Sequence record: MN445185.1 | Origin: Escherichia phage vB_EcoM_EC001 | Length of the DNA stretch: 64,000 bases | Direction: 5' to 3' (one strand) | Part shown: positions 10,819 through 45,438 of the stretch, piece by piece | How positions within the stretch are numbered: position 1 is the stretch's first letter | Layout of the letters: every line of letters starts with the position of its first letter | Made by a program: the position numbers and the translations under genes | The notes under the pieces: model-generated | What the model was told of the DNA's origin: nothing | The model's database searches: none | Seen by the model: the letters and a program-made list of their open reading frames with translations, nothing else

Positions 10819-11418
10819 ATGATCTACAAGGTGATCGCCAACCACTTGATTAATGTGGACTTGGGGGTCGTGGGGTATCTTCCGGACGGTATGCGGTTTT
10901 TGGATTTGGTGGTTGACACCGTAGTCCGCCTACCGCGTATCACCGTGGAGATACCCGTAAAAGAATTGGACCAGGACGAGATGCACGAACTTATACGTGA
11001 AACGCTGACCAGCTACACGTACGAGTTTCGTTGCATGTTACCTCGCACCGACCTTACGTTCTTGCACGACTTCTTTACGTTACTGACTGACGAGTACCGT
11101 CGGTGGAAGTTTAATGTTGCAATGGAAGCCAGCACTGAATCACATTTTAACGGGCTGACACCATTGTTAGATTTAGCGTTGATGTACAAAGAGCAAGACA
11201 GCTCACACTGGGCCACGCTCAAGCACTATACGTTGGATCTAATGGCGACCGCCGTAACGGAGGCAGTTATGGTGCATTATGTTGAGCCGGTGAAGATGTT
11301 CTTAGAGGCGCATAATGGCGCTATCCGTACGTTGGTTCTCAAGGTGGACTTCCCGAAAACACCAGTGACCAATGCTTTGGATATGAGGCTGCTTATTGAT
11401 GTTCCTGAGGAGGAATAA
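10819..11418 (+). CDS. hypothetical protein
   Basis: 199-aa ORF with TAAGGAG RBS. Confidence 0.55.
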   Translation: MIYKVIANHLINVDLGVVGYLPDGMRFLDLVVDTVVRLPRITVEIPVKELDQDEMHELIRETLTSYTYEFRCMLPRTDLTFLHDFFTLLTDEYRRWKFNVAMEASTESHFNGLTPLLDLALMYKEQDSSHWATLKHYTLDLMATAVTEAVMVHYVEPVKMFLEAHNGAIRTLVLKVDFPKTPVTNALDMRLLIDVPEEE

Positions 11419-11828
11419 TGTTCGATTTACGCACACTGGTCGCTGGGCAAAAAGTTAACATTGTTTACGACACCCCTTTGAAAGGGCAAGAGACGCGTGT
11501 AATTATTCTGGCAACCGGCGTTGGCTATGAAATGGCCAAAAGCTATATGGATGTGATGGCGGAGCAGAAGAATATCTACTCATCCATCGTCTCTCAGCCA
11601 GAAGATAACGTGAACAAATACACGTATCTGATTTTCAAAGGTGTTGACGGCAAACCCAAAGTCGCTGCCGATGCCTGGATTCGTGATGTTCAGATTATCG
11701 AAAACACGAAGGTGCGTTTCACCGTCACTCTGGATAACAAACAGGAGATTGACGACCTTAAACGCGCCCTGGCTGCCAATGGTTTCAATGATGTCGATTT
11801 TGAAATCGTTGAGAGCATTGCCGGTTAA
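11418..11828 (+). CDS. hypothetical protein
   Basis: 136-aa ORF, start overlaps previous stop; followed by terminator. Confidence 0.55.
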   Translation: MFDLRTLVAGQKVNIVYDTPLKGQETRVIILATGVGYEMAKSYMDVMAEQKNIYSSIVSQPEDNVNKYTYLIFKGVDGKPKVAADAWIRDVQIIENTKVRFTVTLDNKQEIDDLKRALAANGFNDVDFEIVESIAG

Positions 11829-11834
11829 AGTAAT

Positions 11835-11869
11835 CCCACTCTTCGGAGTGGGTTATTTTTTTTTCTTTT
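11835..11869 (+). terminator. intrinsic terminator (cccactcttcggagtggg plus T-run)
   Basis: Hairpin with TTCG loop and T-run; followed by TTTTTTCACG...TCTTATAG module. Confidence 0.55.
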
Positions 11870-11919
11870 TTCACGTATCCCGCAAGTCTTATAGCTGAGT
11901 AAAAACCAAGGGGCCAGAC

Positions 11920-14211
11920 GTGGACTACAATTCACCATTTCGTCTTAGTCAAGACGAGTATCATCGCGACATTGACGTTATCGATGCGTACTACGAACAA
12001 CTGGCGCTCTACATTCATACCGTCACCAACGGGAAATATTCTTTGGAGTTCTGTCGACAGCAGGTCGAAGAAATGTTCCAACCTGGTGGTGAGTTAGTAC
12101 ACGAATTCCCCGTGTGTAAGATGTGGGTGCGCAATCAAAAGACCGGCGATCGCGAAGAAAAATACACCACGGTAGATAAACTGTTCCGTACAGTGATTGA
12201 TAAGCAGATTATTTCTGCACCGTCGCTGACCTTTTATCTGCCTGAGCACGTCAAGCGCTCTAAGCTTGCTGAATTTACCGCAGAGAACGTGCGTAAGCGT
12301 GCGGTTGTTAAGAAAGAGATGTACGCAGCAGGTGCTGCGGGTAATGAAGTTCTGCGTATTAACAAAAAGAACGAACAGAACGCTGTTAAGACGTTGAACA
12401 ACGGGATGTCGGGTGCATTCTCATCACCGTACACGGTAATCTTTAACCAGTCTTCGCACTCTGTATTGACGTCAACCTGCCGTACGGCTACATCGTTCGG
12501 TAACGCGGGCAACGAACGTCTACTGGGCGGTAATCGTCACTACGACACGCCGTCCCGTGTTATCGACCACTTACTGTCTATTGGTACACTGACTAACTTT
12601 GCTGAGTTCAAGAAGTGTATGGAACTCTATAACCTCCACTACCCAACAGTGGACGAGGTTATGGAAGTGGTTATGTACTCTGCAGAGTTTTACTTCCGTA
12701 ACGACGAAGGGCTGGAGTTCATTCGTCACTACGTCGGTAATTGTAGCCCGCTGGTACGTGCAGCGTTTGTCTACATGGGTGACTTCTACCACCTGGCGAA
12801 ATACAACGATGAATTCATGCGTGGGTTTATCGGTGCGCTGATTGCCGAGGAGATGGAAGACGAGATCACCGATTGGGATGCTGCTGAGCGCTCTATCGAC
12901 GGTGACATGCAGATCATTATCTCGCAGTTCCGTACTGATATCGTGCCGTTAGGTAAGTCGTTCTCTGACGTTAAACTCAAAGACGAAAACACGAACAAAG
13001 CGGAACCGTGGGATAAGCAGGAAAAATACAAAGAGCTGATTCGCTCAGCTGTGTATCTGCAGAAAACCATCGGTAAGTACGCGTGCTTGATTCGTAATAT
13101 CCTGACTACCAAAAACCTGCCGATTAACATTGCCAGGATGCCTGACGTGGTTCGTCGTGTCGGTGTGGTATCTGATACCGACTCCACGATGATGACTGCA
13201 CAGTGGTGGGCACAGTGGTATACCGGTCAACATTACGGTCGTGAAGCTACGCGCGTATCGGATGCGATGATTTATATTGCAACCCAGCACTTACGTCATC
13301 TGATGGCGAGCATGTCGGCGAACATTGGCGTGGCGAAAGAGCGTTTGTTCTTGTACGCAATGAAGAACGAATTTAAGTTCGACTCCTTTGCGTTAACCAC
13401 AAAAGCAAAACACTACTTCTCCATCATCACTGGTCAGGAAGGACAATTGAAGTCCGACCCTGAGTTAGAAGTTAAAGGTGTGTCTTTACGTACGTCAAAC
13501 ATACCGCCTGTGGTCATGAAAGAGTTCAAACGCACGATTAAAGAACTCTGTGAGATTGTAGCGCGCGGCGATAAGATTAAGATTCTGCCTCTGCTGGAAA
13601 AGGTTGCTGCAATTGAGCACGTTGTGGTGGACTCTATTCGTGCTGGTAAAGCAGGCTACCTGAAAACAACCAACGTCAAAGACCGTAGTGCGTACTCTGA
13701 AGATGATGAAAAGAGCTACCACTACCACCGCATGTACAACGCCATCTTTGGACCGAAGTACGGCTACCTGGACGAACCGCCTTATGATGCCGTGAAGCTT
13801 CCGGTAAACCTGGAGAACAAAACAGCCGTTAAAGAGTGGCTGGAAAACATTAAAGACCCGATGATTAAGACCACCGCAACACGGTGGTTCGAAGAAAACA
13901 ACTATCGTACCTATCGTACTCTGATACTGCCAGAGTTCCTGGTGGAAAACTTCGGTATTCCGCCGGAGCTGATTGATGCTGCAGACACACGTCGAAGCGC
14001 ATTCTCCACAGTAGAACCTTACTATCACATTCTGGAATGTCTGGGTGTGTTCATGATGGACAAGAACAGAACTCGTCTGCTTTCGGATTACTACGGCGAA
14101 TCTGTAGACTCGGTCAAGGAAGAATTAGGTAGCGGTGAGTACGTTAAGAAATCTGAACGTGATGGAGAGGAAGAAGATGGGGAAGAAGATGGGGAAGAAG
14201 CGGAGGAGTAA
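11920..14211 (+). CDS. family-B DNA polymerase, C-terminal fragment (fingers, motifs B and C, thumb); acidic C-terminal tail
   Basis: GTG start with AAGGGG RBS. Lys/Arg-rich helix then KTLNNGMSG fits motif B (K-x3-N-x3-G); VVSDTDS fits motif C (DTDS); ends EEEDGEEDGEEAEE. No exonuclease or motif A, which lie in minus-strand ORF 43654..45438. Confidence 0.6.
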   Translation: MDYNSPFRLSQDEYHRDIDVIDAYYEQLALYIHTVTNGKYSLEFCRQQVEEMFQPGGELVHEFPVCKMWVRNQKTGDREEKYTTVDKLFRTVIDKQIISAPSLTFYLPEHVKRSKLAEFTAENVRKRAVVKKEMYAAGAAGNEVLRINKKNEQNAVKTLNNGMSGAFSSPYTVIFNQSSHSVLTSTCRTATSFGNAGNERLLGGNRHYDTPSRVIDHLLSIGTLTNFAEFKKCMELYNLHYPTVDEVMEVVMYSAEFYFRNDEGLEFIRHYVGNCSPLVRAAFVYMGDFYHLAKYNDEFMRGFIGALIAEEMEDEITDWDAAERSIDGDMQIIISQFRTDIVPLGKSFSDVKLKDENTNKAEPWDKQEKYKELIRSAVYLQKTIGKYACLIRNILTTKNLPINIARMPDVVRRVGVVSDTDSTMMTAQWWAQWYTGQHYGREATRVSDAMIYIATQHLRHLMASMSANIGVAKERLFLYAMKNEFKFDSFALTTKAKHYFSIITGQEGQLKSDPELEVKGVSLRTSNIPPVVMKEFKRTIKELCEIVARGDKIKILPLLEKVAAIEHVVVDSIRAGKAGYLKTTNVKDRSAYSEDDEKSYHYHRMYNAIFGPKYGYLDEPPYDAVKLPVNLENKTAVKEWLENIKDPMIKTTATRWFEENNYRTYRTLILPEFLVENFGIPPELIDAADTRRSAFSTVEPYYHILECLGVFMMDKNRTRLLSDYYGESVDSVKEELGSGEYVKKSERDGEEEDGEEDGEEAEE

Positions 14212-14597: not shown

Positions 14598-14781
14598 CGG
14601 GAAGTCCACAGAGATGATAACCGCAATCCGTCGCGACCTCGAAGAACGGGGTTGCGTGGATATTGAGTTACATCAGGCAGGCGAAACGGTGCATATCACG
14701 GCATTGGATGCCAAACGGAAACGTAGTATCACTGTGTGGGGTAAACCGTACGCAAGTGATTTCATGGAGACGATAAAATGA
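14584..14781 (+). CDS. hypothetical small protein
   Basis: 65-aa ORF; stop overlaps next start (ATGA). Confidence 0.35.
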   Translation: MYRNSGKSTEMITAIRRDLEERGCVDIELHQAGETVHITALDAKRKRSITVWGKPYASDFMETIK

Positions 14782-15449
14782 GTGATGAACAAGATTTGAA
14801 GTTACCAATGTCAATACCCGAATTGACTTATCTCACCGTCAACCGAGACGATCTCATTAATCAAGTAAGCAAACGCGTAGAGAAAGCCTTTGCTCAGAGT
14901 GGTTATAGTGAAGCGATTCGTAATTTCCGTACACCACTGGCACAATCAGTTACACAACCGCATGGTAAAGGCACTCAGTTATTAGTCGCTGTTCACCCGA
15001 CCTCACCTCTGGCAAAACAGCTGCTTACTGAAATGAACTGGCACTATAAGTGTGTTGAAGAAGTTCAGTCAGCTAATATCGAATGGGCTATGTCGCACAA
15101 GTCTCGCGAAGTGGCGTTAGTCGAATACCTGCGAAAACTACCTTGGGTTGGTGATTCTGCTGTTCTCCGCGATGGCGTAGGTGGGCCGGAAGTCTGGTCA
15201 CCTAATGCGGTGATTGATGTCGATTTCGTGGTTATCGATCCGGGTAGCAATACGCATGTCGTTCGTTTTACGGATGCGAATGTCGCTTCTGTGTGTAAAC
15301 AGTTGGGTATTGCCTACTATCAATGCGGGAAGAAAAAGAAGTCGTCGAGTGTTGAAATTGAGGTGGCGTTTACTGCGGTACAAACCCTAGATCCCGCTGC
15401 GGTTGAACATGCTTTAAACTTCCTCAAGAACCACCCAGACAGCAAATAA
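14778..15449 (+). CDS. hypothetical protein
   Basis: 223-aa ORF ending at bidirectional terminator. Confidence 0.55.
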   Translation: MSDEQDLKLPMSIPELTYLTVNRDDLINQVSKRVEKAFAQSGYSEAIRNFRTPLAQSVTQPHGKGTQLLVAVHPTSPLAKQLLTEMNWHYKCVEEVQSANIEWAMSHKSREVALVEYLRKLPWVGDSAVLRDGVGGPEVWSPNAVIDVDFVVIDPGSNTHVVRFTDANVASVCKQLGIAYYQCGKKKKSSSVEIEVAFTAVQTLDPAAVEHALNFLKNHPDSK

Positions 15450-32643: not shown

Positions 32644-34748
32644 TGGCGGGTCGTTCTGTACACGTGCGTGATTTGCGTATGCTTAACTCTGATCAGGTGT
32701 GGAAACTACGCGGGCGTTATTACGTGACATTCGACGATGGTAAGTCGTTGGAAATGTCTAGTCGCCACATCAAACTCAGCTGGCCGTATTGGGGTGTGTC
32801 GCGTCTGTATCCGCAGGTGCCCACTCCATCGACCATGGCGTATCGTCCAGGTCAGGTAGCAACAGATGACCTGCATCTGGACTTTATGTCGGAAGCAGCG
32901 GTACTGGCCCGTAAAGCAGGTGTCGACCTTGCTGAAACGCGTTATATCCTGAGTCAACATGTCTACGCCGATGCGTTCAACATGACAGTGAAGAACCTGC
33001 TGTCCTATTGCACGACAATCGACTTTGATACGATGATGGAGATCTACGACCATCCGAACTTCGAACTCATCCGTCAGTGGGAAGTGCAATATCCTACTGG
33101 CTACGATGAAGATGGTCGGGATATGGTTGAAGAAGCGTACAAGCTTATCGAGAAAATCTTCAAAGACCCTGCGCTACGGTATAACCCGGTCGTGATGTCG
33201 GTACTGGATGGTACTGTGAAGATGAACCAGGTACTGCAAGCCTTCGTGCGTGGTAAAACGTCAGAAATTGACTCACGTGTATACACCAATCAGGTGTGGG
33301 AAGGCTTCTTTACCGGAATGCATTCGGTTATTTCGCGTTTGAAAGAATCTGGTGCAACTTCACGTTCCCACTTGTACAACACTGACAAGATTGCCGAAGC
33401 AGAATACGCCTCACGTAAACTGCAGCTGGCAGCAAACGTACTGATGTATTTCACGTACGACGACTGCGGTACAACTCACGCACACCGCTACACGTTTAAG
33501 GATACGCAGCTGGATGAGCGTGCCTATAAAGCGATGGTGGGGATGCGTTATCGTTTAGAAGGTGATAATGGTCCGTGGTTGAGATTTGAGAAAGGTGGAT
33601 ACGCAGACCTGGTTGGCAAACCGCTGGTCTTCCGTAGTGCCATGACCTGTAAAGAGATGGCGAATCAGTCCATCTGTGCGACCTGTATGGGGGATTTGAT
33701 TTATAACCTCTCTGAAGGTACGTCACCAGGTCATCTGGCATCCACGTCCATCTCGGAAAAGGGTACACAGGGAATTCTCTCTACCAAGCACCTTGACTTC
33801 TTGCGTTATCTGCTCAACCTGGTACTCACCCCACGTATGCGTGAGTATATGACCGAATACAAACATAACTCTCTGAAAGGGTTGTGCTTGCTGCCAAAAC
33901 CACAGCGTGGGAATTGGTCAGAATACGAGTTGGTTGTTACCGACAAAGTTTATTCGGAGCTGAGCCAGATTGCGTATCATGAAGATCTCGATGCAATTGA
34001 TGAAACGGCATTACCAGAAATCACCGACTTAACTTTCCAACGTCGTTTAGAAGATGGGCAGATAATCGCTGCGGATTCTATCGATGTGCGAATGGGTGTT
34101 TGTGGGAACTTCTCTAAACCGTTCCTGCACTACTTCTTGAAACAACGAGCGAACATTCGTATCGAGAAGAAGACGGTTCAGATTCCTTTGAAAGGATGGA
34201 ACCCGAAACACCCGGTCCTGGTCTACACCAACCGTTCTGAATCGATGGCGGAGTTCGTAGCCGGCTTAGAAACCAAGCTCCGTTCGATTGCTGCCGATAA
34301 GAACGAAGACATTGTGGAAATCATCAACACAGCCTCGACTGTGAAGCTGAACAAGAAACAAGGTCGTGTGAAACCGGTGACGTTGGTTGAAATGGGTGGT
34401 GCTACAGAGAAACAGTGTACTTATGCGTTGATGGACACGTTTAAGTATATCCAGCGTAAGCTGAGTGGTATACCGATGACGCACATTGCGATTATGTTGG
34501 CGATATCTCGTGTAGAGTCGCCAACCAATCCGTTCCCGGCAGTAGGATTTGACAGTGAGGATTCTACTAATGCCACCGGGAAACGGTTTGTCGATCACAA
34601 CACGCTCATTAGTTTGCGCTCGGCAATTCCGATGTTGTTGTTTGAAGGACAGCAGGGGAATATCGATCGCGTTGGTTTTTATACCGAGTACAAAATCCCG
34701 GCATCGTTGTACGATGACCTAGGAGCCGCTGTGGTAATTGAGTTGTAA
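32643..34748 (+). CDS. multisubunit RNA polymerase beta-prime-like subunit, C-terminal fragment (bridge helix and trigger-loop region)
   Basis: ATG overlaps the beta stop by 1 nt. ISRLKESGATSRSHL resembles the bridge helix ALKTANSGYLTRRL; ASTSISEKGTQGILSTKHLDF resembles SIGEPGTQLTMRTFH. Confidence 0.55.
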   Translation: MAGRSVHVRDLRMLNSDQVWKLRGRYYVTFDDGKSLEMSSRHIKLSWPYWGVSRLYPQVPTPSTMAYRPGQVATDDLHLDFMSEAAVLARKAGVDLAETRYILSQHVYADAFNMTVKNLLSYCTTIDFDTMMEIYDHPNFELIRQWEVQYPTGYDEDGRDMVEEAYKLIEKIFKDPALRYNPVVMSVLDGTVKMNQVLQAFVRGKTSEIDSRVYTNQVWEGFFTGMHSVISRLKESGATSRSHLYNTDKIAEAEYASRKLQLAANVLMYFTYDDCGTTHAHRYTFKDTQLDERAYKAMVGMRYRLEGDNGPWLRFEKGGYADLVGKPLVFRSAMTCKEMANQSICATCMGDLIYNLSEGTSPGHLASTSISEKGTQGILSTKHLDFLRYLLNLVLTPRMREYMTEYKHNSLKGLCLLPKPQRGNWSEYELVVTDKVYSELSQIAYHEDLDAIDETALPEITDLTFQRRLEDGQIIAADSIDVRMGVCGNFSKPFLHYFLKQRANIRIEKKTVQIPLKGWNPKHPVLVYTNRSESMAEFVAGLETKLRSIAADKNEDIVEIINTASTVKLNKKQGRVKPVTLVEMGGATEKQCTYALMDTFKYIQRKLSGIPMTHIAIMLAISRVESPTNPFPAVGFDSEDSTNATGKRFVDHNTLISLRSAIPMLLFEGQQGNIDRVGFYTEYKIPASLYDDLGAAVVIEL

Positions 34749-34751
34749 ACC

Positions 34752-34777
34752 GAGGGGCCTTGCGCCCCTCTTTTTTT
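34752..34777 (+). terminator. intrinsic terminator (gaggggccttgcgcccctc plus T-run)
   Basis: Hairpin plus T-run after the RNAP genes. Confidence 0.55.
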
Positions 34778-34794
34778 GTGCGAAGAGGGGCAGC

Positions 34795-37539
34795 ATGGTA
34801 GAAATTCAAATGACTTACACGAGTATGGGGGTACGGGTTGAAGTCCCTATCCGCCAGGCTGAAAGGGCCATACTCGCGTGGGCCGAAGAGAATATGCACG
34901 CCCCAAAGATGGGCAAGCAACATGGACGAATAACTACGGAACGCGGTGACGCGTACTACGCCCACATTCCGTCTTTAAGGACGTTCATTTTCCATAAAGT
35001 GTTCGCTGAGAAGATTAAACATATCCTCCAACGAGCAGCAATTGAATATGCTTTTCAGTACAAGCTTACAGAGCACCATCCTGAGCGAGGAACACCTTAC
35101 TGCTGTACATTTGATAACTACGGCTTCTCGATGGTAGAAAGCGATCCGGAGTCGCGTTTCTACTATCAGAACGAGGTTGTGGATGCAGCGTCCGATCCAA
35201 ACCGACCACAGACAATCTTTGCCATTCAGACAGGGAGAGGAAAATGCTGTGCTCATGGTACGCGTGTGCGTGTACCGGGTGGTTGGAAGAACATTGAGGA
35301 TATACAGCTAGGTGATTACGTTACGGGGCGTGACGGAAAACCAGCAATGGTCTCTGGAGTGTTCCCACAGGGTGTGGTTGACCTGTATCAGGTGACGTTT
35401 TGGGATGGTAGGAGTGTTGACGTATGTGGCGAGCACTTGTGGCAAAGCTACTACGTTAATACCACCGAGAATCGTCGCTGGGGTGTACGTGATACCCTAG
35501 AGATGAAACGTTTAATTTCGATGCCTAATCCACGGGTATACATCCCATTACCAGAACCAGAGGAAATGCCAGCTAAGGATTTTGTCATTCATCCGTATTT
35601 ACTCGGTATCCTCTTGGGTGATGGCTCCCTATCGATGCCTGGTGTTTTATACACCAAAGGCGATGTGGAGATTCGTGACCGTGTTGCTGAGGTCATGCCC
35701 GCTGGACATGCAATCCATGATTCATCGTACAGCGATGGGATAACGAAGTGCATCTCTTGTCCCGGCGGTGTTAACCTTGTCCGCAGAGAGCTTGAGCGGT
35801 TAGGGTTAATTGGCTGCAGGTCTTGGGAAAAGTTCATACCTGGAGATTACTTCGAAACGTCCATCGAACAACGGTGGGAGTTGTTGCGTGGCTTGATGGA
35901 TACTGACGGTACTGTGGATAAGGATGGTGGTACGCCTTCTTTCTGTTCCACCAGTAAAGAATTGGCTTTAGGTGTTCAGGAACTTGTGCGGTCTTTAGGA
36001 GGGATTGCAACACTACGCGAGAAACGTCCGTTCTTCACACACAACGGCGAACGTCGTGAAGGTCGTTTGGCTTATAACGTCTCCATCCGCCACAAAACAC
36101 CATCGAAACTGTTCCACCTTCCAAGGAAGAAAGAACTGTGTCGTGATAACGGACAATACACCGATATACTGAAACTCCGTGTTAAGTCTATCGAACCCAT
36201 TGGTCGTGATCTTGCCACGTGTATTCGTGTCGAGAACGACGATGCGTTGTTTGTGGTGGACAAGTGGATCGTTACGCACAACACCAAGACCTGTATGAAG
36301 TCGATGGTTAAACGGGGAACCCGTACCGCATTGATTCACCGTCCGTCGTACGTTCCCAAATGGCTGTTTGACGTCTGTGATGATGAAACAGGACTTCGTA
36401 TACTTCGTGACGAGGTGTTAGTTTGTACAGGCGTACAGGCGATTTACGACGCGCTGGAGATGGGTAAGTCGGGAGAGCTAGATAGTCGTGGTATTAAGGT
36501 AATAATCCTCCCCACGGTCTCTCTACAGCGTTTCCTGAAGGAGTACATTAACACTGCTGCGACTAACCCTGTGGACCTGGATACGTTTTATGATGTTCTG
36601 GGTGTGGGTCTGGTGGCGATGGATGAGGTGCACGAGCATTTTCACCTCGTTTACATGGCTGGTATAATGTTGAACCCTCCGGCATCGATAGAGATGTCTG
36701 CAACCCTTAAGCCGGGTAGCAGTAAAGCCTTTATCGCGGAGCGGTATTTAGAACGTTTCCCAATGGAGTACCGAATCAGTATTCCAATCATTCCGGTGGT
36801 TGACGTGAAGGCGTTGTACTATCGACTGGATGATAAGAAGTTTGCGTGGTGGGCGTCGAAGATGACGCCGTATAACCACAAGCTCTTCGAAGGGAAGCTG
36901 ATTAAAGAGAACTTGCATTTAGAATACGCGAACATGATCTGGGATGTGGTTGAGAAATCGTTCCTTAAACGGTATCAACCTGGCCAAAAATGTTTGATAC
37001 TCTTTGCTACGGTAGCGATGTGTGAGTTCTTTACCGAGTATGTGAAAGATAAGTTATCGCGTGACCCTGTATTCCATCCGTTGATGGTGGCGAAATATAA
37101 TGCAGGCGATTCGTATGACGACTTTATCCAAGCAGACTTCTCTATCTCCACACCGGGGAAAGCGGGGACTGCGGTCGATAAACCTGGGTTGGTACACATG
37201 TACATTTCAACCCCGGTAGAAGACCAGCAACTGAACGAACAGATGGCCGGTCGTCCACGTAAGATTCTCCACAACGAATGGGGTGAAATAGACCCAACGG
37301 TGTGGTTATTCCATGCGTATAACGTACCGAAGCATTGCAATTACCTGAATGCCCGCCAGAAATCACTCAAGGATGTCGTATTGTCGTTCCGTATCGCGAC
37401 ATCCCCCTACGTTGTAAGGAAATCACATGCTCACTCCGCCGCGTCCAGCAGAGCCGCTGCCACCCTACATCGGAATGACTTTAGCAAGTTTTCTCGAAAA
37501 CGTTCTAAAGGCGTATCCCGGCGTAGAAGACGTCGCTAA
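34795..37539 (+). CDS. SF2 (DExH-box) helicase interrupted by an intein in the Walker A motif; 3-prime end uncertain
   Basis: Start at ATG with GAGGGG RBS (track ORF 34738). Extein motifs: P-loop GRGK-[intein]-TKT, DEVHEH, SAT, QMAGRPRK. Basic C-terminal tail overlaps the next ORF. Confidence 0.65.
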   Translation: MVEIQMTYTSMGVRVEVPIRQAERAILAWAEENMHAPKMGKQHGRITTERGDAYYAHIPSLRTFIFHKVFAEKIKHILQRAAIEYAFQYKLTEHHPERGTPYCCTFDNYGFSMVESDPESRFYYQNEVVDAASDPNRPQTIFAIQTGRGKCCAHGTRVRVPGGWKNIEDIQLGDYVTGRDGKPAMVSGVFPQGVVDLYQVTFWDGRSVDVCGEHLWQSYYVNTTENRRWGVRDTLEMKRLISMPNPRVYIPLPEPEEMPAKDFVIHPYLLGILLGDGSLSMPGVLYTKGDVEIRDRVAEVMPAGHAIHDSSYSDGITKCISCPGGVNLVRRELERLGLIGCRSWEKFIPGDYFETSIEQRWELLRGLMDTDGTVDKDGGTPSFCSTSKELALGVQELVRSLGGIATLREKRPFFTHNGERREGRLAYNVSIRHKTPSKLFHLPRKKELCRDNGQYTDILKLRVKSIEPIGRDLATCIRVENDDALFVVDKWIVTHNTKTCMKSMVKRGTRTALIHRPSYVPKWLFDVCDDETGLRILRDEVLVCTGVQAIYDALEMGKSGELDSRGIKVIILPTVSLQRFLKEYINTAATNPVDLDTFYDVLGVGLVAMDEVHEHFHLVYMAGIMLNPPASIEMSATLKPGSSKAFIAERYLERFPMEYRISIPIIPVVDVKALYYRLDDKKFAWWASKMTPYNHKLFEGKLIKENLHLEYANMIWDVVEKSFLKRYQPGQKCLILFATVAMCEFFTEYVKDKLSRDPVFHPLMVAKYNAGDSYDDFIQADFSISTPGKAGTAVDKPGLVHMYISTPVEDQQLNEQMAGRPRKILHNEWGEIDPTVWLFHAYNVPKHCNYLNARQKSLKDVVLSFRIATSPYVVRKSHAHSAASSRAAATLHRNDFSKFSRKRSKGVSRRRRRR
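35245..36282 (+). mobile_element. intein (346 aa) with double-motif LAGLIDADG homing endonuclease
   Basis: Begins CCAHGTRVRVPGG...IEDIQLGDYV directly after P-loop GK; contains LLGILLGDGSL and LRGLMDTDGTV; ends VVDKWIVTHN followed by Thr. Predicted spliced P-loop is GRGKTKT. Confidence 0.7.
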
Positions 37540-40923: not shown

Positions 40924-41808
40924 ATGCCCTTTTCACTATGGAACAGAGCCATGATTGATATTTATACCGACTATGCGGCTGTATTGACAGTCAACCGTCA
41001 CGAAGGTCGTGCAGCACCGATGCTAGATTTAGTGACGCTCGGTATGGATTACGGTTACGATGTGGCGTTATCCGATGTTTATAGCAACCCGTTGTCTGAC
41101 CCCGCGGACGAAACTGTCCGTCTGGAATCCATTATCGTGAAGGTAGCGGTTGGATTAGGCAACCGCCTCGGTATCGGACTTAATCCACAAATCGTCTTCC
41201 AGAAACCGAAAGAAACCGTACGTATCCTTCACGGTGTGTTGGAAGCCTTCGAGGAGTTCGAAGACAGTGATGCCCTTTACGGGATTGTCTCCTCTGGTGA
41301 GACACCAGAGTATATCCTGGAGAACATGTGTCGTTATGTTTACGGTGACGAAAACCTGCACTTCGAAGACCTGATTACTGTTGTCAGCCCACGCGTGCTT
41401 ACCGTGATGGAGAACTTCTTAGCAGCAGAGTCGTTGGAAAGCCAGAAACGAAACGGCGACGACGAGCGTCAACAGCGTATCGTCGCTTACTTGCGGTTGT
41501 TCCCTGAGAACCCGTCAGCGTTTGTCTTTATGAATCTGCCTGCTGAGCCAGACTTAACGGTGGTGCAGCAGTCGTTAGAGTTTCGCGTAGAGGACATTAG
41601 CGAAATTGATTTGCTGACGATGTATGCGGTGGGCTTATCGATTATTCCTCATGCGGAGTTTGATGGGGCTTACGGTGACTTAGAAAAGAACCTTGCCCTG
41701 TTGAACGTCGACAACGTCCCGCCTGGAGAAATCTTGCGGAAAGGATTGGAAGCGTTGAAAGTCATATACGCTAGTGGGGACGCGGAGGTAGATGATGAAC
41801 AAGATTGA
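40924..41808 (+). CDS. hypothetical protein (start may be 40951)
   Basis: 294-aa ORF; alternative in-frame ATG at 40951. Confidence 0.5.
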   Translation: MPFSLWNRAMIDIYTDYAAVLTVNRHEGRAAPMLDLVTLGMDYGYDVALSDVYSNPLSDPADETVRLESIIVKVAVGLGNRLGIGLNPQIVFQKPKETVRILHGVLEAFEEFEDSDALYGIVSSGETPEYILENMCRYVYGDENLHFEDLITVVSPRVLTVMENFLAAESLESQKRNGDDERQQRIVAYLRLFPENPSAFVFMNLPAEPDLTVVQQSLEFRVEDISEIDLLTMYAVGLSIIPHAEFDGAYGDLEKNLALLNVDNVPPGEILRKGLEALKVIYASGDAEVDDEQD

Positions 41809-43090
41809 CTATCTGGTCGCTGCGTGTAAAGCAGAAGCTTGGCGTAGACTGGTGTGGCGTATTGCGGTTTTCAACGTGGCAATCTTTAATGAAAAAGGTG
41901 AGCCACCTGAGCAATACGACCTGAACTATATTGACGGCTTGCCCCACTACTGGGAAAACGAAGAAATTAAATGGGTGCCGATTGAAGGGTGCAAAAAAGA
42001 TGAAGAGCTGTTCGTGCCAGAAGAGCAGTTTGAATTGCGTCCTGAGATGTACCCAGGTTTAGCTGGTCCCATTCCGACTACCGTGGGTCGCTATGTCTTT
42101 AACTGGATTGCTATCTATTACGCTTTCGGTACCCGTCTCCCGTATCTGGCAGAGTCTCGTGACCCACTAGCCTACCGTAAAGAGATGTATGAGCGTTGTG
42201 TGGAATATGATGACAGCGATCCAGACAACGAAGACGCGATTCGACCGTACATGATAGGACGCTTTGTAGGGGGTCTACACGAGCTTGCTCCGTTGTGTCG
42301 TGGGATTGCCCCAACAGGAACTATTAGAAGCCTTACAACGCATCCTGACGCGTATAAGGTACGAGATGCGTTGCTGTTGAAGCACAAAGACGAACTGGAT
42401 AACCCTGCGGTTATCGTTATGATTGAAAAAGCTCTCGATGAACTTGATAAAGAGTGGTTGAGTGGCGACCAGTCCGTTGAGTTCTACAGCTCTCCTAAAG
42501 CGCGTATGCGTCGCCGTAAGCTGATGCTGATGTACGGTATTCAGACCGCTTTTAAAGAAGGTGCAGATTTTACCTTAATCCCAACGAGCCTGATGGAAGT
42601 TGATCAGACCGGGATGAAGTATCTGGTAGAGAAATTCAATGATACGCGAGAAGGTTCCTTCATGCGTGGTGCAGAAACTGCCAAGGGCGGGGAGCAAGTA
42701 CGTATCATCCAGATGATCTTCCAGAACCACAAAATCGTGCCTGGTGATTGCGGGACAAAACTGACACATGCAGTTGTAATTAACCAGTATAACTACAAGC
42801 GTTATGTTGGCATGAACGCGATGGTTAACGGTAAAGTTACCCAACTCACCGAAGAGTATTTGAAAACGCAATTTGGTAAAGTTGTTCGACTCCGCCGACC
42901 CATCTTATGTCAGCAAGGTCACGTAGACTGTTGTGCGGCGTGCTCCTCTGCACACAAAGCAGAAGAGCCACGGGCAATCGCTGCGGATATCTCTTCCGGC
43001 TTCTCGAACGTTATGACCACTGCAATGGGTGCGATGCACGGTCGTGAAACCGTGGTTAAAGAGTACATCCCTAAATTCCACATCACCTAA
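41792..43090 (+). CDS. hypothetical protein
   Basis: 432-aa ORF overlapping previous gene end. Confidence 0.55.
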   Translation: MMNKIDYLVAACKAEAWRRLVWRIAVFNVAIFNEKGEPPEQYDLNYIDGLPHYWENEEIKWVPIEGCKKDEELFVPEEQFELRPEMYPGLAGPIPTTVGRYVFNWIAIYYAFGTRLPYLAESRDPLAYRKEMYERCVEYDDSDPDNEDAIRPYMIGRFVGGLHELAPLCRGIAPTGTIRSLTTHPDAYKVRDALLLKHKDELDNPAVIVMIEKALDELDKEWLSGDQSVEFYSSPKARMRRRKLMLMYGIQTAFKEGADFTLIPTSLMEVDQTGMKYLVEKFNDTREGSFMRGAETAKGGEQVRIIQMIFQNHKIVPGDCGTKLTHAVVINQYNYKRYVGMNAMVNGKVTQLTEEYLKTQFGKVVRLRRPILCQQGHVDCCAACSSAHKAEEPRAIAADISSGFSNVMTTAMGAMHGRETVVKEYIPKFHIT

Positions 43091-43653: not shown

Positions 43654-45438
43654 TTAGAACCCGCAGATGTACTCCATAGGCTCTGTCACTACTTCCCCTT
43701 GCTTACGTAAGAACGTAGACAGGACAGTGTCTTTGTCCGGTAAGCAGAAGAAGTCTGTCGCTATTTCCATGGCATTAACTCGCCCAGCAGTTAAGTTGAC
43801 GCCCGTGCGACGTCGAATCTCTTCACTAACCCCATTGATGGACAGTAGTTCGATGAGTGTGGTCTCACGAGACTGGTTCATCATGTTTGTGGCCGAAGGG
43901 TAGGCCTGGGTTAAGTCCGCATCCGCAGTTTGTCCACGGAACGCAGAGTAATATTCGTCAATCTCCTCCAGAATGTTATTCAGACCGTTCTCAGCATTCA
44001 TACATGCTGTCAGGGTAACAATCCAACCGTCTGTACCGATAACCTCTTCATCGTAATCGTTACGCATTGCAGACCCTACGGAACCGATGACGTATCCTTT
44101 GTCATACAGATAATAGGTAAAGGCCACACAGATACGTTTTGGTAACGACGGGAAGATATCGTACATCGAGAAACCTGCCAGAATGGATATTGCTGAAGAC
44201 AAGTCGTTCGTCTTCTTATCCAACAACACGATTAACAAGTTATCCATCATGTTGTATACGGCATATTCGGCAGGGTAGTCCCGTTGTGCTTTTATGTGCC
44301 ATTGCAGGTTATCTTCATACGGCAGTCCAGGAATGTCGAGTTTGTGTAAACCGAGTTCGGTGTACAGTATGGCAGATAACTTGTACGAAGGACGTTGCCC
44401 TTCGTGGACACGCAACGAACGGAATAACACCATGGCATCCACACAGTAGAAAGACGCAGTACAGTAGAGTACGTGCCACTGTTGAGACGGTGCTTTGGTG
44501 AGTGACTTGGATTCCGTCTTTTTGTTCGCCTGGTCTTCTTTAAACCACAGACGACGGTATTTCTCCGGAACATCCGGATGGTTAAAGACGCCCAGTGGAT
44601 CGATACCTTCTTTCTGCAAGGTTTCCAACATGCGTGAAATATCGAACTGGTGGTTCCATGCGACCAGCAAATCAGGAAGACGTGGATGAATTTCTTCGAA
44701 CATCCTGACGATGCACTGCCCTGCCGTAGCGCAGGTATAGGTGAATATTTTATAACCGCTGATAATGTCTTTGGTCTTTGTCACCTTTTCGCCAGTCTTT
44801 TTGTCTTTCTCATCGAATTCGATTTTGCTTAAGAGTTCCTGCGCTTTTTTGAGAATGACTTCTTCCGCGTTTTTACCGATGCGGTCCATGTAGTTCTTAG
44901 CACCAAAGAAATGGATTTCGTCGTCTAAGATAAACGACACGATCCACGGTTCCTTCGTGCCGTCCATTTCGTTGGTCTCCACGTCGTATACGCAAAGACG
45001 GTTAGGGCTGATGTTGTTCGGCCAGCGCTTTAAGTATTTCTGTTTAATCCAGCTGGTAATCGGTAAGTCGGCCCAATAAACGTACGGGCTAGTACAGACT
45101 CGGCGCAGGTTCTTTTTCGGGTCAGGGAAACGTGCACCTAAACCCATCTGCAACGTCTTCGCCATCTGCGCATCAGTAGTCCAGAGTTCTTGACATTTTC
45201 CTTTTTCTTCGAACTCTTTTTTCTCCTGGTGGTTACGATATTCTTCACGGGTAACGTACACCGGACGCTTTAAATTCTCACGCATTACCAAGCGCGGGAT
45301 AAGCCTGCCATCCTTAGTATGGATGACCTCTTTGATGAGGACAAAGTCATTTTCTTTTTCTTCGTCCGTCGCATAAGCGACGTGCTTGCACTCTTTAGCG
45401 ATGACATCCTCGGGTGCGTAATAGGTATTGATTTCCAT
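43654..45438 (-). CDS. family-B DNA polymerase, N-terminal fragment (3-prime to 5-prime exonuclease domain plus palm motif A)
   Basis: Exo I LCVYDVETNEMDG (D-x-E), Exo II WNHQFDISRML, Exo III YAVYNMMDNLL (Y-x3-D), motif A DLTQAYPSA (D-x2-SLYPS-like). ORF stops about 80 aa after motif A; motifs B and C are in 11920..14211. Confidence 0.65.
   Translation of the reverse strand: MEINTYYAPEDVIAKECKHVAYATDEEKENDFVLIKEVIHTKDGRLIPRLVMRENLKRPVYVTREEYRNHQEKKEFEEKGKCQELWTTDAQMAKTLQMGLGARFPDPKKNLRRVCTSPYVYWADLPITSWIKQKYLKRWPNNISPNRLCVYDVETNEMDGTKEPWIVSFILDDEIHFFGAKNYMDRIGKNAEEVILKKAQELLSKIEFDEKDKKTGEKVTKTKDIISGYKIFTYTCATAGQCIVRMFEEIHPRLPDLLVAWNHQFDISRMLETLQKEGIDPLGVFNHPDVPEKYRRLWFKEDQANKKTESKSLTKAPSQQWHVLYCTASFYCVDAMVLFRSLRVHEGQRPSYKLSAILYTELGLHKLDIPGLPYEDNLQWHIKAQRDYPAEYAVYNMMDNLLIVLLDKKTNDLSSAISILAGFSMYDIFPSLPKRICVAFTYYLYDKGYVIGSVGSAMRNDYDEEVIGTDGWIVTLTACMNAENGLNNILEEIDEYYSAFRGQTADADLTQAYPSATNMMNQSRETTLIELLSINGVSEEIRRRTGVNLTAGRVNAMEIATDFFCLPDKDTVLSTFLRKQGEVVTEPMEYICGF

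Follow-up and report, generated by a model that had tools for sequence, protein, structure and literature searches.

A split family B DNA polymerase in an SPN3US-like jumbo phage: the C-terminal subunit and its probable share in a composite active site

How does an open reading frame (ORF) that carries motifs B and C of a family B DNA polymerase, with no sign of motif A or of an exonuclease, fit into a replicative enzyme, and where does the rest of that enzyme reside? The ORF lies at 11920–14211 (+) in a 64,000-nucleotide (nt) stretch of Escherichia phage vB_EcoM_EC001 (MN445185.1), hereafter the window. An original prediction, made from the letters alone, took it for a C-terminal polymerase fragment with a separate partner. 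This proved correct: Pfam PF20286 matches the protein at E=4.2e-284, its SPN3US ortholog is gp18 (YP_009153312.1), and its motifs match those of the T4-like polymerase gp43. The ORF very probably encodes the C-terminal (fingers–palm–thumb) subunit of a two-polypeptide, RNA-primed-type family B replicative polymerase with a composite active site. Membership of PF20286, orthology with SPN3US, invariant catalytic residues, collinear alignments to gp43 and near-identical genus counts for the two halves all support this reading.

An ordinary member of a described family

The ORF encodes 763 amino acids (aa) from a GTG codon. An in-frame TGA stands at 11896–11898, no ATG, GTG or TTG codon intervenes between it and the GTG, and S5-P-F7, Y14 and R16 are conserved or invariant across the polymerase family, so the GTG start is forced and a later start is excluded. 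A Shine–Dalgarno-like AAGGGG is positioned 6 nt 5′ of the GTG, and the SPN3US annotation uses the same start for the ortholog; the GTG-started frame, as originally called, is real. At the DNA level the ORF shares 99.1% identity with Escherichia phage vB_EcoM_Lh1B, where it has the same coordinates, and 95–99% with many Salmonella SPN3US-like phages (genus Seoulvirus), with SPN3US itself at 96.7%. By its sequence, the window belongs to an SPN3US-like (phiKZ-like, nucleus-forming) jumbo phage. The SPN3US RefSeq record labels the orthologous coding sequence (CDS; 11544–13823, YP_009153312.1) 'DNA polymerase' and gives the same label to a second CDS at 41224–43008 on the minus strand. Inside the gene, two antisense ORFs at 12786–13187 (−; 133 aa) and 13495–14028 (−; 177 aa) probably arise as shadows of the coding strand.

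PF20286, 'Divergent Family B DNA polymerase', covers ORF residues 11–725 and scores 944.6 bits against a cut-off of 25.7, with profile positions 3–705 of 705 aligned. A sub-threshold match to PF00136 (DNA_pol_B) falls on residues 94–189. In PHROGs, the best match is phrog_2927 'DNA polymerase' (E=0), and weak matches to classical PolB families fall on residues 417–543. Among 5.8 billion proteins searched, 346 homologs were retrieved, each with PF20286 and mostly of 705–770 aa; phmmer with the single protein against the PDB returned noise only.

The named members of PF20286 include phiKZ gp50, EL gp21, 201phi2-1 gp83 and SPN3US gp18. The ORF shares with them a full-length match to the hidden Markov model, a DTD motif C, a long helical insert before the motif C hairpin, the absence of a fused exonuclease, an upstream SH3-fold gene and a phiKZ-like jumbo phage as host genome. 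Nothing essential differs, although the clade of the ORF adds a 38-residue acidic tail after the peptide TRLLSDYY. The ORF is an ordinary member of this described family, and the split of the polymerase was already known, so the finding itself is not new. By the account of papers citing it, Cornelissen 2012 reportedly gave the first description of the split. The literature on the split polymerase dates from 2011 to 2021, with the discovery made by Kazlauskas & Venclovas 2011 (PMC3201878). SPN3US gp18 and gp44 have been called a split-subunit DNA polymerase (PMC5694885), and YP_009153312.1 is the exemplar used by Iyer 2021.

Catalytic motifs and a break within the palm

Conservation was scored over 53 diverse homologs of 35–85% identity, extended to 56 sequences by adding EL, 201phi2-1 and the phiKZ strain KTN4 (26–34%). 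For comparison with classical enzymes we used hhalign and a reference profile made from eight gp43 sequences of T4-like phages, RB69 being the first row. The whole C-fragment profile recovered only the motif C-to-thumb part of gp43 because the insert breaks the local alignment, and the comparison was re-run on residues 1–210, 205–412 and 1–100.

Motif B (K157-TLNNGMS-G165; 12388–12414) and motif C (S418-D419-T420-D421-S422-T423; 13171–13188), the latter forming the catalytic DTD β-hairpin, correspond to the KTLNNGMSG (residues 157–165) and VVSDTDS (residues 416–422) strings on which the original prediction was built. Across the 53 homologs, R127, K131, Q153, K157, N160, N161, S164, G165, T172, H180, L183, T184, C187 and R188 are invariant, as are all six residues of motif C together with K497 and Y499 of the KxY motif (K497-H-Y499; 13408–13416). 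Motif C is likewise invariant in 56/56, and D288, D419 and D421 hold in all 56 sequences once EL, 201phi2-1 and the phiKZ strain are included. Because these residues are invariant across diverse homologs, the motif matches are not due to chance.

The first aligned segment places residues 85–195 on RB69 440–598 (E=1.1e-3), giving the equivalences R127=R482, K131=K486, Q153=Q556, K157=K560, N161=N564, G165=G568 and T184=T587. In RB69, R482, K486 and K560 are the triphosphate-binding residues of the fingers, and N564 is part of motif B. The second segment places residues 412–568 on RB69 617–772 (E=4.4e-4), with D419/D421 on D621/D623 of the RB69 D621-T-D623 motif and K497/Y499 on K706/Y708. A profile search of the PDB independently adds a match of residues 84–165 to the motif B region of Pol zeta (residues 1018–1098; E=0.003) and of residues 482–531 to RB69 706–755. 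The ORF lacks some 50 residues of the fingers tip seen in RB69, and motif B has S164 where RB69 has Tyr567, the Tyr of the canonical Kx3NSxYG. Residues 1–84 and 205–412 have no gp43 counterpart (hhalign, E=0.29 each). Motif A (DxxSLYPS) and an exonuclease domain are both absent from the 763-aa ORF, as first predicted, and both were found on the partner gene.

The predicted structure agrees with this layout. AlphaFold2 with the 53-sequence alignment gave a mean predicted local distance difference test (pLDDT) score of 86.4 and a predicted template-modelling (pTM) score of 0.81. The model shows the palm/fingers/thumb fold of family B polymerases. It begins with an N-terminal extension (residues 1–84; 11920–12171) of two helices and a β-hairpin (pLDDT 82–96), in which F7, Y14 and R16 are invariant. 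Residues 85–203 (12172–12528), supported by the hhalign, Pol zeta and PF00136 matches, run from a palm hairpin through shortened fingers helices and motif B to the palm helix that follows; the long antiparallel helices 115–139 and 143–168 end in motif B. A helical block (179–395) precedes the motif C hairpin at 417–424 (strands 417–419 and 422–424), and the KxY sits on a three-stranded sheet (485–519) followed by an α/β thumb (residues 530–717; 13507–14070). A Foldseek search of the PDB with the model bore out the expected palm and thumb similarity, as every match at E≤1e-3 was RB69 or T4 gp43 (prob 1.0, E about 3e-4).

The partner is a 594-aa protein encoded at 43654–45438 (−), the ortholog of SPN3US gp44 (YP_009153338.1), with an N-terminal domain, a 3′–5′ exonuclease and the first part of the palm. 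It matches phrog_3011 'DNA polymerase' and positions 91–369 of a classical PolB PHROG. A profile of 49 partner sequences aligns residues 35–531 with RB69 15–434, unbroken (Prob 98.5%, E=2e-15). Exo I D152/E154 falls on RB69 D114/E116, Exo II N262..D266 on N217..D222 and Exo III Y395/D399 on Y323/D327. Motif A of the partner (D506-A-D508-L-T-Q-A-Y513-P514-S515; 43894–43923, −) is aligned through D508-L-T-Q-A-Y513-P-S with RB69 D411-L-T-S-L-Y416-P-S. D152/E154, D266, Y395/D399, D506/D508 and Y513/P514 are invariant in 49/49 partner sequences.

Read together, the alignments of the two fragments put the polymerase break between RB69 ~434 and ~440, in the palm directly after the motif A helix. With the break in the palm, the active site would therefore be built from two polypeptides. 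Partner residues 532–594 (~63) and the leading 84 residues of the ORF have no gp43 equivalent, and these ends (~63 and ~84 residues) are probably docking elements. In the enzyme that we propose, the ORF product would supply the fingers that bind deoxynucleoside triphosphates (through R127, K131 and, in motif B, K157 and N161), D419 and D421 as metal ligands in motif C, a KxY (K497/Y499) that contacts the primer, and the thumb. The partner would supply the exonuclease and motif A, with the catalytic D508 and, at the steric-gate position, Y513. The two proteins would assemble into one composite active site for polymerisation, with the junction extensions of both docking the subunits. The acidic tail would be a clade-specific accessory, possibly making electrostatic contacts, outside the conserved mechanism.

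The two genes occur together across phages. Searches by tblastn located the C-fragment in 300 records of phages, against 294 for the N-fragment, with equal C/N counts in Pseudomonas (81/81), Erwinia (62/62), Vibrio (23/23), Serratia (21/21), Aeromonas (20/20), Klebsiella (16/16), Ralstonia (13/13) and Burkholderia (4/4). They are nevertheless unlinked, ~30 kb apart on opposite strands, and in phiKZ they are unlinked too (about 42 kb versus 78 kb). The phiKZ-group match to the N-fragment (NC_004629.1, 78008–79888) came as two tblastn pieces with an E-value much weaker than in other clades at a similar level of identity, a hint that the N-fragment of phiKZ has an insertion or a segment that has diverged.

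A comparable division of labour is found in the split gp43A/gp43B of T4-like phages, namely the Aeromonas phage Riv-10/44RR group and Acinetobacter phage Ac42. In both systems the first polypeptide bears the exonuclease and motif A, and the second bears motifs B and C and the thumb. The break point differs: Riv-10 43A corresponds to RB69 5–512 and 43B to RB69 521–902, which puts the break at the fingers tip, whereas here it maps to the palm. The T4-like halves lie on one strand, adjacent in Riv-10 or 2.5 kb apart in Ac42, in contrast to the distant, opposite-strand genes here, and they lack both the junction extensions and the 200-aa insert that are present here. Relative to unsplit RB69/T4 gp43 (~11–15% identity), the enzyme of the ORF is split, has fingers shorter by ~50 residues and adds a 209-aa insert; published surveys also report no recognisable sliding clamp in phiKZ-like phages.

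Competing placements of the active site

Several points weigh against a composite enzyme. The heterodimer and its shared site are drawn from homology, and our literature search returned no biochemical or structural study of any phiKZ-type polymerase family member or replisome. Taken singly, the C-fragment hhalign segments are weak (Prob 21–34%, E about 1e-3); they carry weight because they are collinear and match at invariant residues. Two published analyses moreover give the C-fragment the whole polymerase domain and make the partner a stand-alone exonuclease (Kazlauskas & Venclovas 2011, PMC3201878; Iyer 2021).

If those analyses are followed, the ORF product would be a self-sufficient polymerase with both catalytic aspartates, and the 594-aa protein a loosely associated proofreading exonuclease. 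Kazlauskas & Venclovas 2011 (PMC3201878) assigned both active-site aspartates, EL D229 and D398, to the C-fragment homolog, the partner being in their view an exonuclease, and self-sufficiency is implicit in Iyer 2021, who described a polymerase without a fused exonuclease, the latter 'encoded elsewhere'. EL D398 corresponds to D421 of the ORF in our alignment. EL D229, however, aligns to N226 (nt 12595–12597), in a column that holds D in 42 and N in 14 of the 56 sequences, and with Asn in 14/56 the position is unfit as a metal ligand. We rejected EL D229 as the motif A aspartate once the addition of EL, 201phi2-1 and KTN4 to the alignment had exposed this variable D/N column. The insert does contain an invariant aspartate, D288, but the insert, D288 included, does not resemble the motif A region of gp43 (E=0.29). 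D288 is predicted to sit in a helix–loop–helix rather than at the end of a strand, and the insert was dropped as a displaced motif A, its secondary structure being wrong. On the partner, by contrast, the invariant D-x-D-x-x-Q-A-Y-P...N-x-S-x-E-T matches RB69 F-D411-LTSL-Y416-PS...N-IS-PET residue for residue, and this block lies inside the 98.5% hhalign match that runs unbroken from the exonuclease domain. These alignments locate motif A on the partner and correct the 2011 placement of the motif A aspartate, and papers later than 2011 are consistent with motif A on the partner. We consider a self-sufficient ORF product improbable.

It is far less plausible that the protein is what remains of a polymerase, degenerate and without catalytic activity, and that it now serves another role. 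Its divergence from other family B enzymes is extreme, as the empty phmmer search against the PDB attests, and S164 replaces the canonical Tyr of motif B. The metal- and triphosphate-binding residues, however, are all invariant across the family, genome surveys report no other replicative polymerase (Iyer 2021; Kazlauskas & Venclovas 2011), the gene is a core gene of nucleus-forming phages, and the polymerase of phage RAY localises with phage DNA.

Least credible of all is the joining of the halves into one chain by a split intein: both fragments do carry extra junction sequence with no gp43 counterpart (63 and 84 residues) and inteins do occur in this genome, but neither fragment yielded a Hint or intein domain (at E≤10 Pfam returned only divDNApol and DNA_pol_B in the C-fragment and nothing in the N-fragment or in its last 63 residues), the consensus of residues 1–84 lacks a conserved HN-C/S/T splice junction, and the structure prediction, with confidence, makes the N-terminal extension a folded portion of the protein. 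The Hint/intein halves that mark the junction in split-intein polymerases such as those of Nanoarchaeum (PolB) and MIJ3 (PolB) were not found here. In the region annotated 'DNA helicase' in SPN3US, a 933-aa ORF at 34738–37539 (+) contains Hint (residues 170–221) and LAGLIDADG homing-endonuclease (residues 374–453) domains, which indicates an intein inside the replicative helicase. The same stretch is represented by three separate CDSs in the SPN3US RefSeq record.

Insert, C-terminal tail and neighbouring genes

The original prediction had noted about 270 residues between motifs B and C and expected an insertion, which is borne out: the K157–D419 spacing is 262 residues against 61 in RB69 (K560–D621), so that ~200 residues are inserted. 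Since RB69 T587..G590 is the homologue of the palm helix that follows motif B (T184-x2-C187-R188), the insert is bounded at approximately residues 204–412 (12529–13155). This family-specific, all-α domain is present in every homolog, with invariant P242, Y285, D288 and N296 and conserved blocks at 241–260 and 281–300, the second of which holds Y285, D288 and N296. Predicted on its own, it folds as a compact all-α domain (pLDDT 91.6, pTM 0.83), for which no structural neighbour and no recognisable solved relative was found. Iyer 2021 described a multi-helical insert of exceptional length and speculated that it compensates for a missing sliding clamp.

The family core ends at a conserved C-terminal peptide, T718-RLLSDY-Y725 (14071–14094), in which S722 is invariant and D723 at least 90% conserved. 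Most homologs end at TRLLSDYY or a few residues beyond, and phiKZ, 201phi2-1 and EL end exactly at ...TRL(I/V)SD(F/E)(Y/H). 'TRLISDFY' was proposed as a possible clamp-binding-like peptide (Kazlauskas & Venclovas 2011, PMC3201878), and published surveys report no clamp, clamp loader or primase in the phiKZ-like phage replisome. Conceivably, though we think it unlikely, the insert, the junction extensions and the TRLLSDYY peptide may form a built-in or SH3-assisted clamp substitute or primer-handling module, with the protein of the upstream SH3-fold gene as an accessory subunit docking on the C-terminal peptide. The results speak neither for nor against this proposal, parts of which Iyer 2021 and Kazlauskas 2011 put forward speculatively.

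Beyond the peptide, residues 726–763 (14095–14208) form the acidic tail, EEEDGEEDGEEAEE, which ends the protein with 18 D/E and 4 K/R in its last 38 residues and is predicted to be disordered (pLDDT <50, residues 731–763). Part of it is encoded by a 12-nt tandem repeat, GGAAGAAGATGG, present in 2.7 copies with 100% matches (TRF; 14169–14200) and translated as EEDG repeats. The closest database protein, P0001 (759 aa), is shorter by exactly one repeat of four codons, which suggests replication slippage as the source of the difference. The tail is absent from about 78% of the sampled family, and, of the 120 best homologs, only 22 carry an acidic extension 15 or more residues long, mainly in the SPN3US/Erwinia-phage clade. 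The acidic tail noted at the outset is therefore present, while the role then suggested for it, in association with the N-terminal fragment, is weakened by this clade restriction. Because the split is universal in the family and the tail is not, the tail is unlikely to hold the halves together or to be a general docking element for the partner. The tail may play an accessory electrostatic part, for which the acidic C-termini of T7 gp2.5, T7 gp4 and T4 gp32 are known precedents.

Directly upstream of the polymerase, at 11418–11828 (+), lies a 136-aa SH3-fold gene that matches PF20287, 'SH3 fold domain associated with phage DNA polymerases' (E=3.2e-35). The pairing is kept in phage EL, where ORF020 (PF20287, E=4e-35) is directly upstream of ORF021, with 26% identity between the polymerases, and the SH3-fold gene neighbourhood of the polymerase was noted by Iyer 2021. 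A pattern scan detected a terminator-like hairpin between the SH3 gene and the polymerase start, CCCACTC-TTCG-GAGTGGG with a T-run (11835–11862, +). Its 7-bp stem has 5 GC pairs and is followed by TTATTTTTTT; hairpin and T-run together come right behind the SH3 gene and stop 58 nt short of the polymerase start. Given this putative terminator, the SH3–polymerase pair may not be one simple transcription unit. The ortholog of the SH3 gene in 201phi2-1, gp81 ('similar to phiKZ gp49 and EL gp20'), is annotated 'detected by mass spectrometry', and the KTN4 gene just upstream of the polymerase, known by position only, bears the annotation 'putative virion-associated protein'. Packaging of the SH3 protein in virions, if it occurs, would be awkward for the proposal that it is a polymerase subunit. 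Downstream, a 223-aa ORF at 14778–15449 (+) has no Pfam match and apparently no counterpart in the SPN3US annotation. Across it the coordinate offset between the window and SPN3US climbs from about 390 to about 1050 nt, which suggests an insertion or deletion of ~0.7 kb between these close relatives.

The analysis adds modestly to what was known of this family: a map of the split at the level of residues (break at RB69 ~434/440, motif A assigned to the partner), an insert without a known fold, and an acidic tail that appears to be a clade-specific repeat product rather than a conserved interface. The understanding of the gene's identity is unchanged. These additions can guide the choice of mutants and truncations for the replicative polymerase of nucleus-forming jumbo phages, a group that now draws attention in phage therapy and cell biology.

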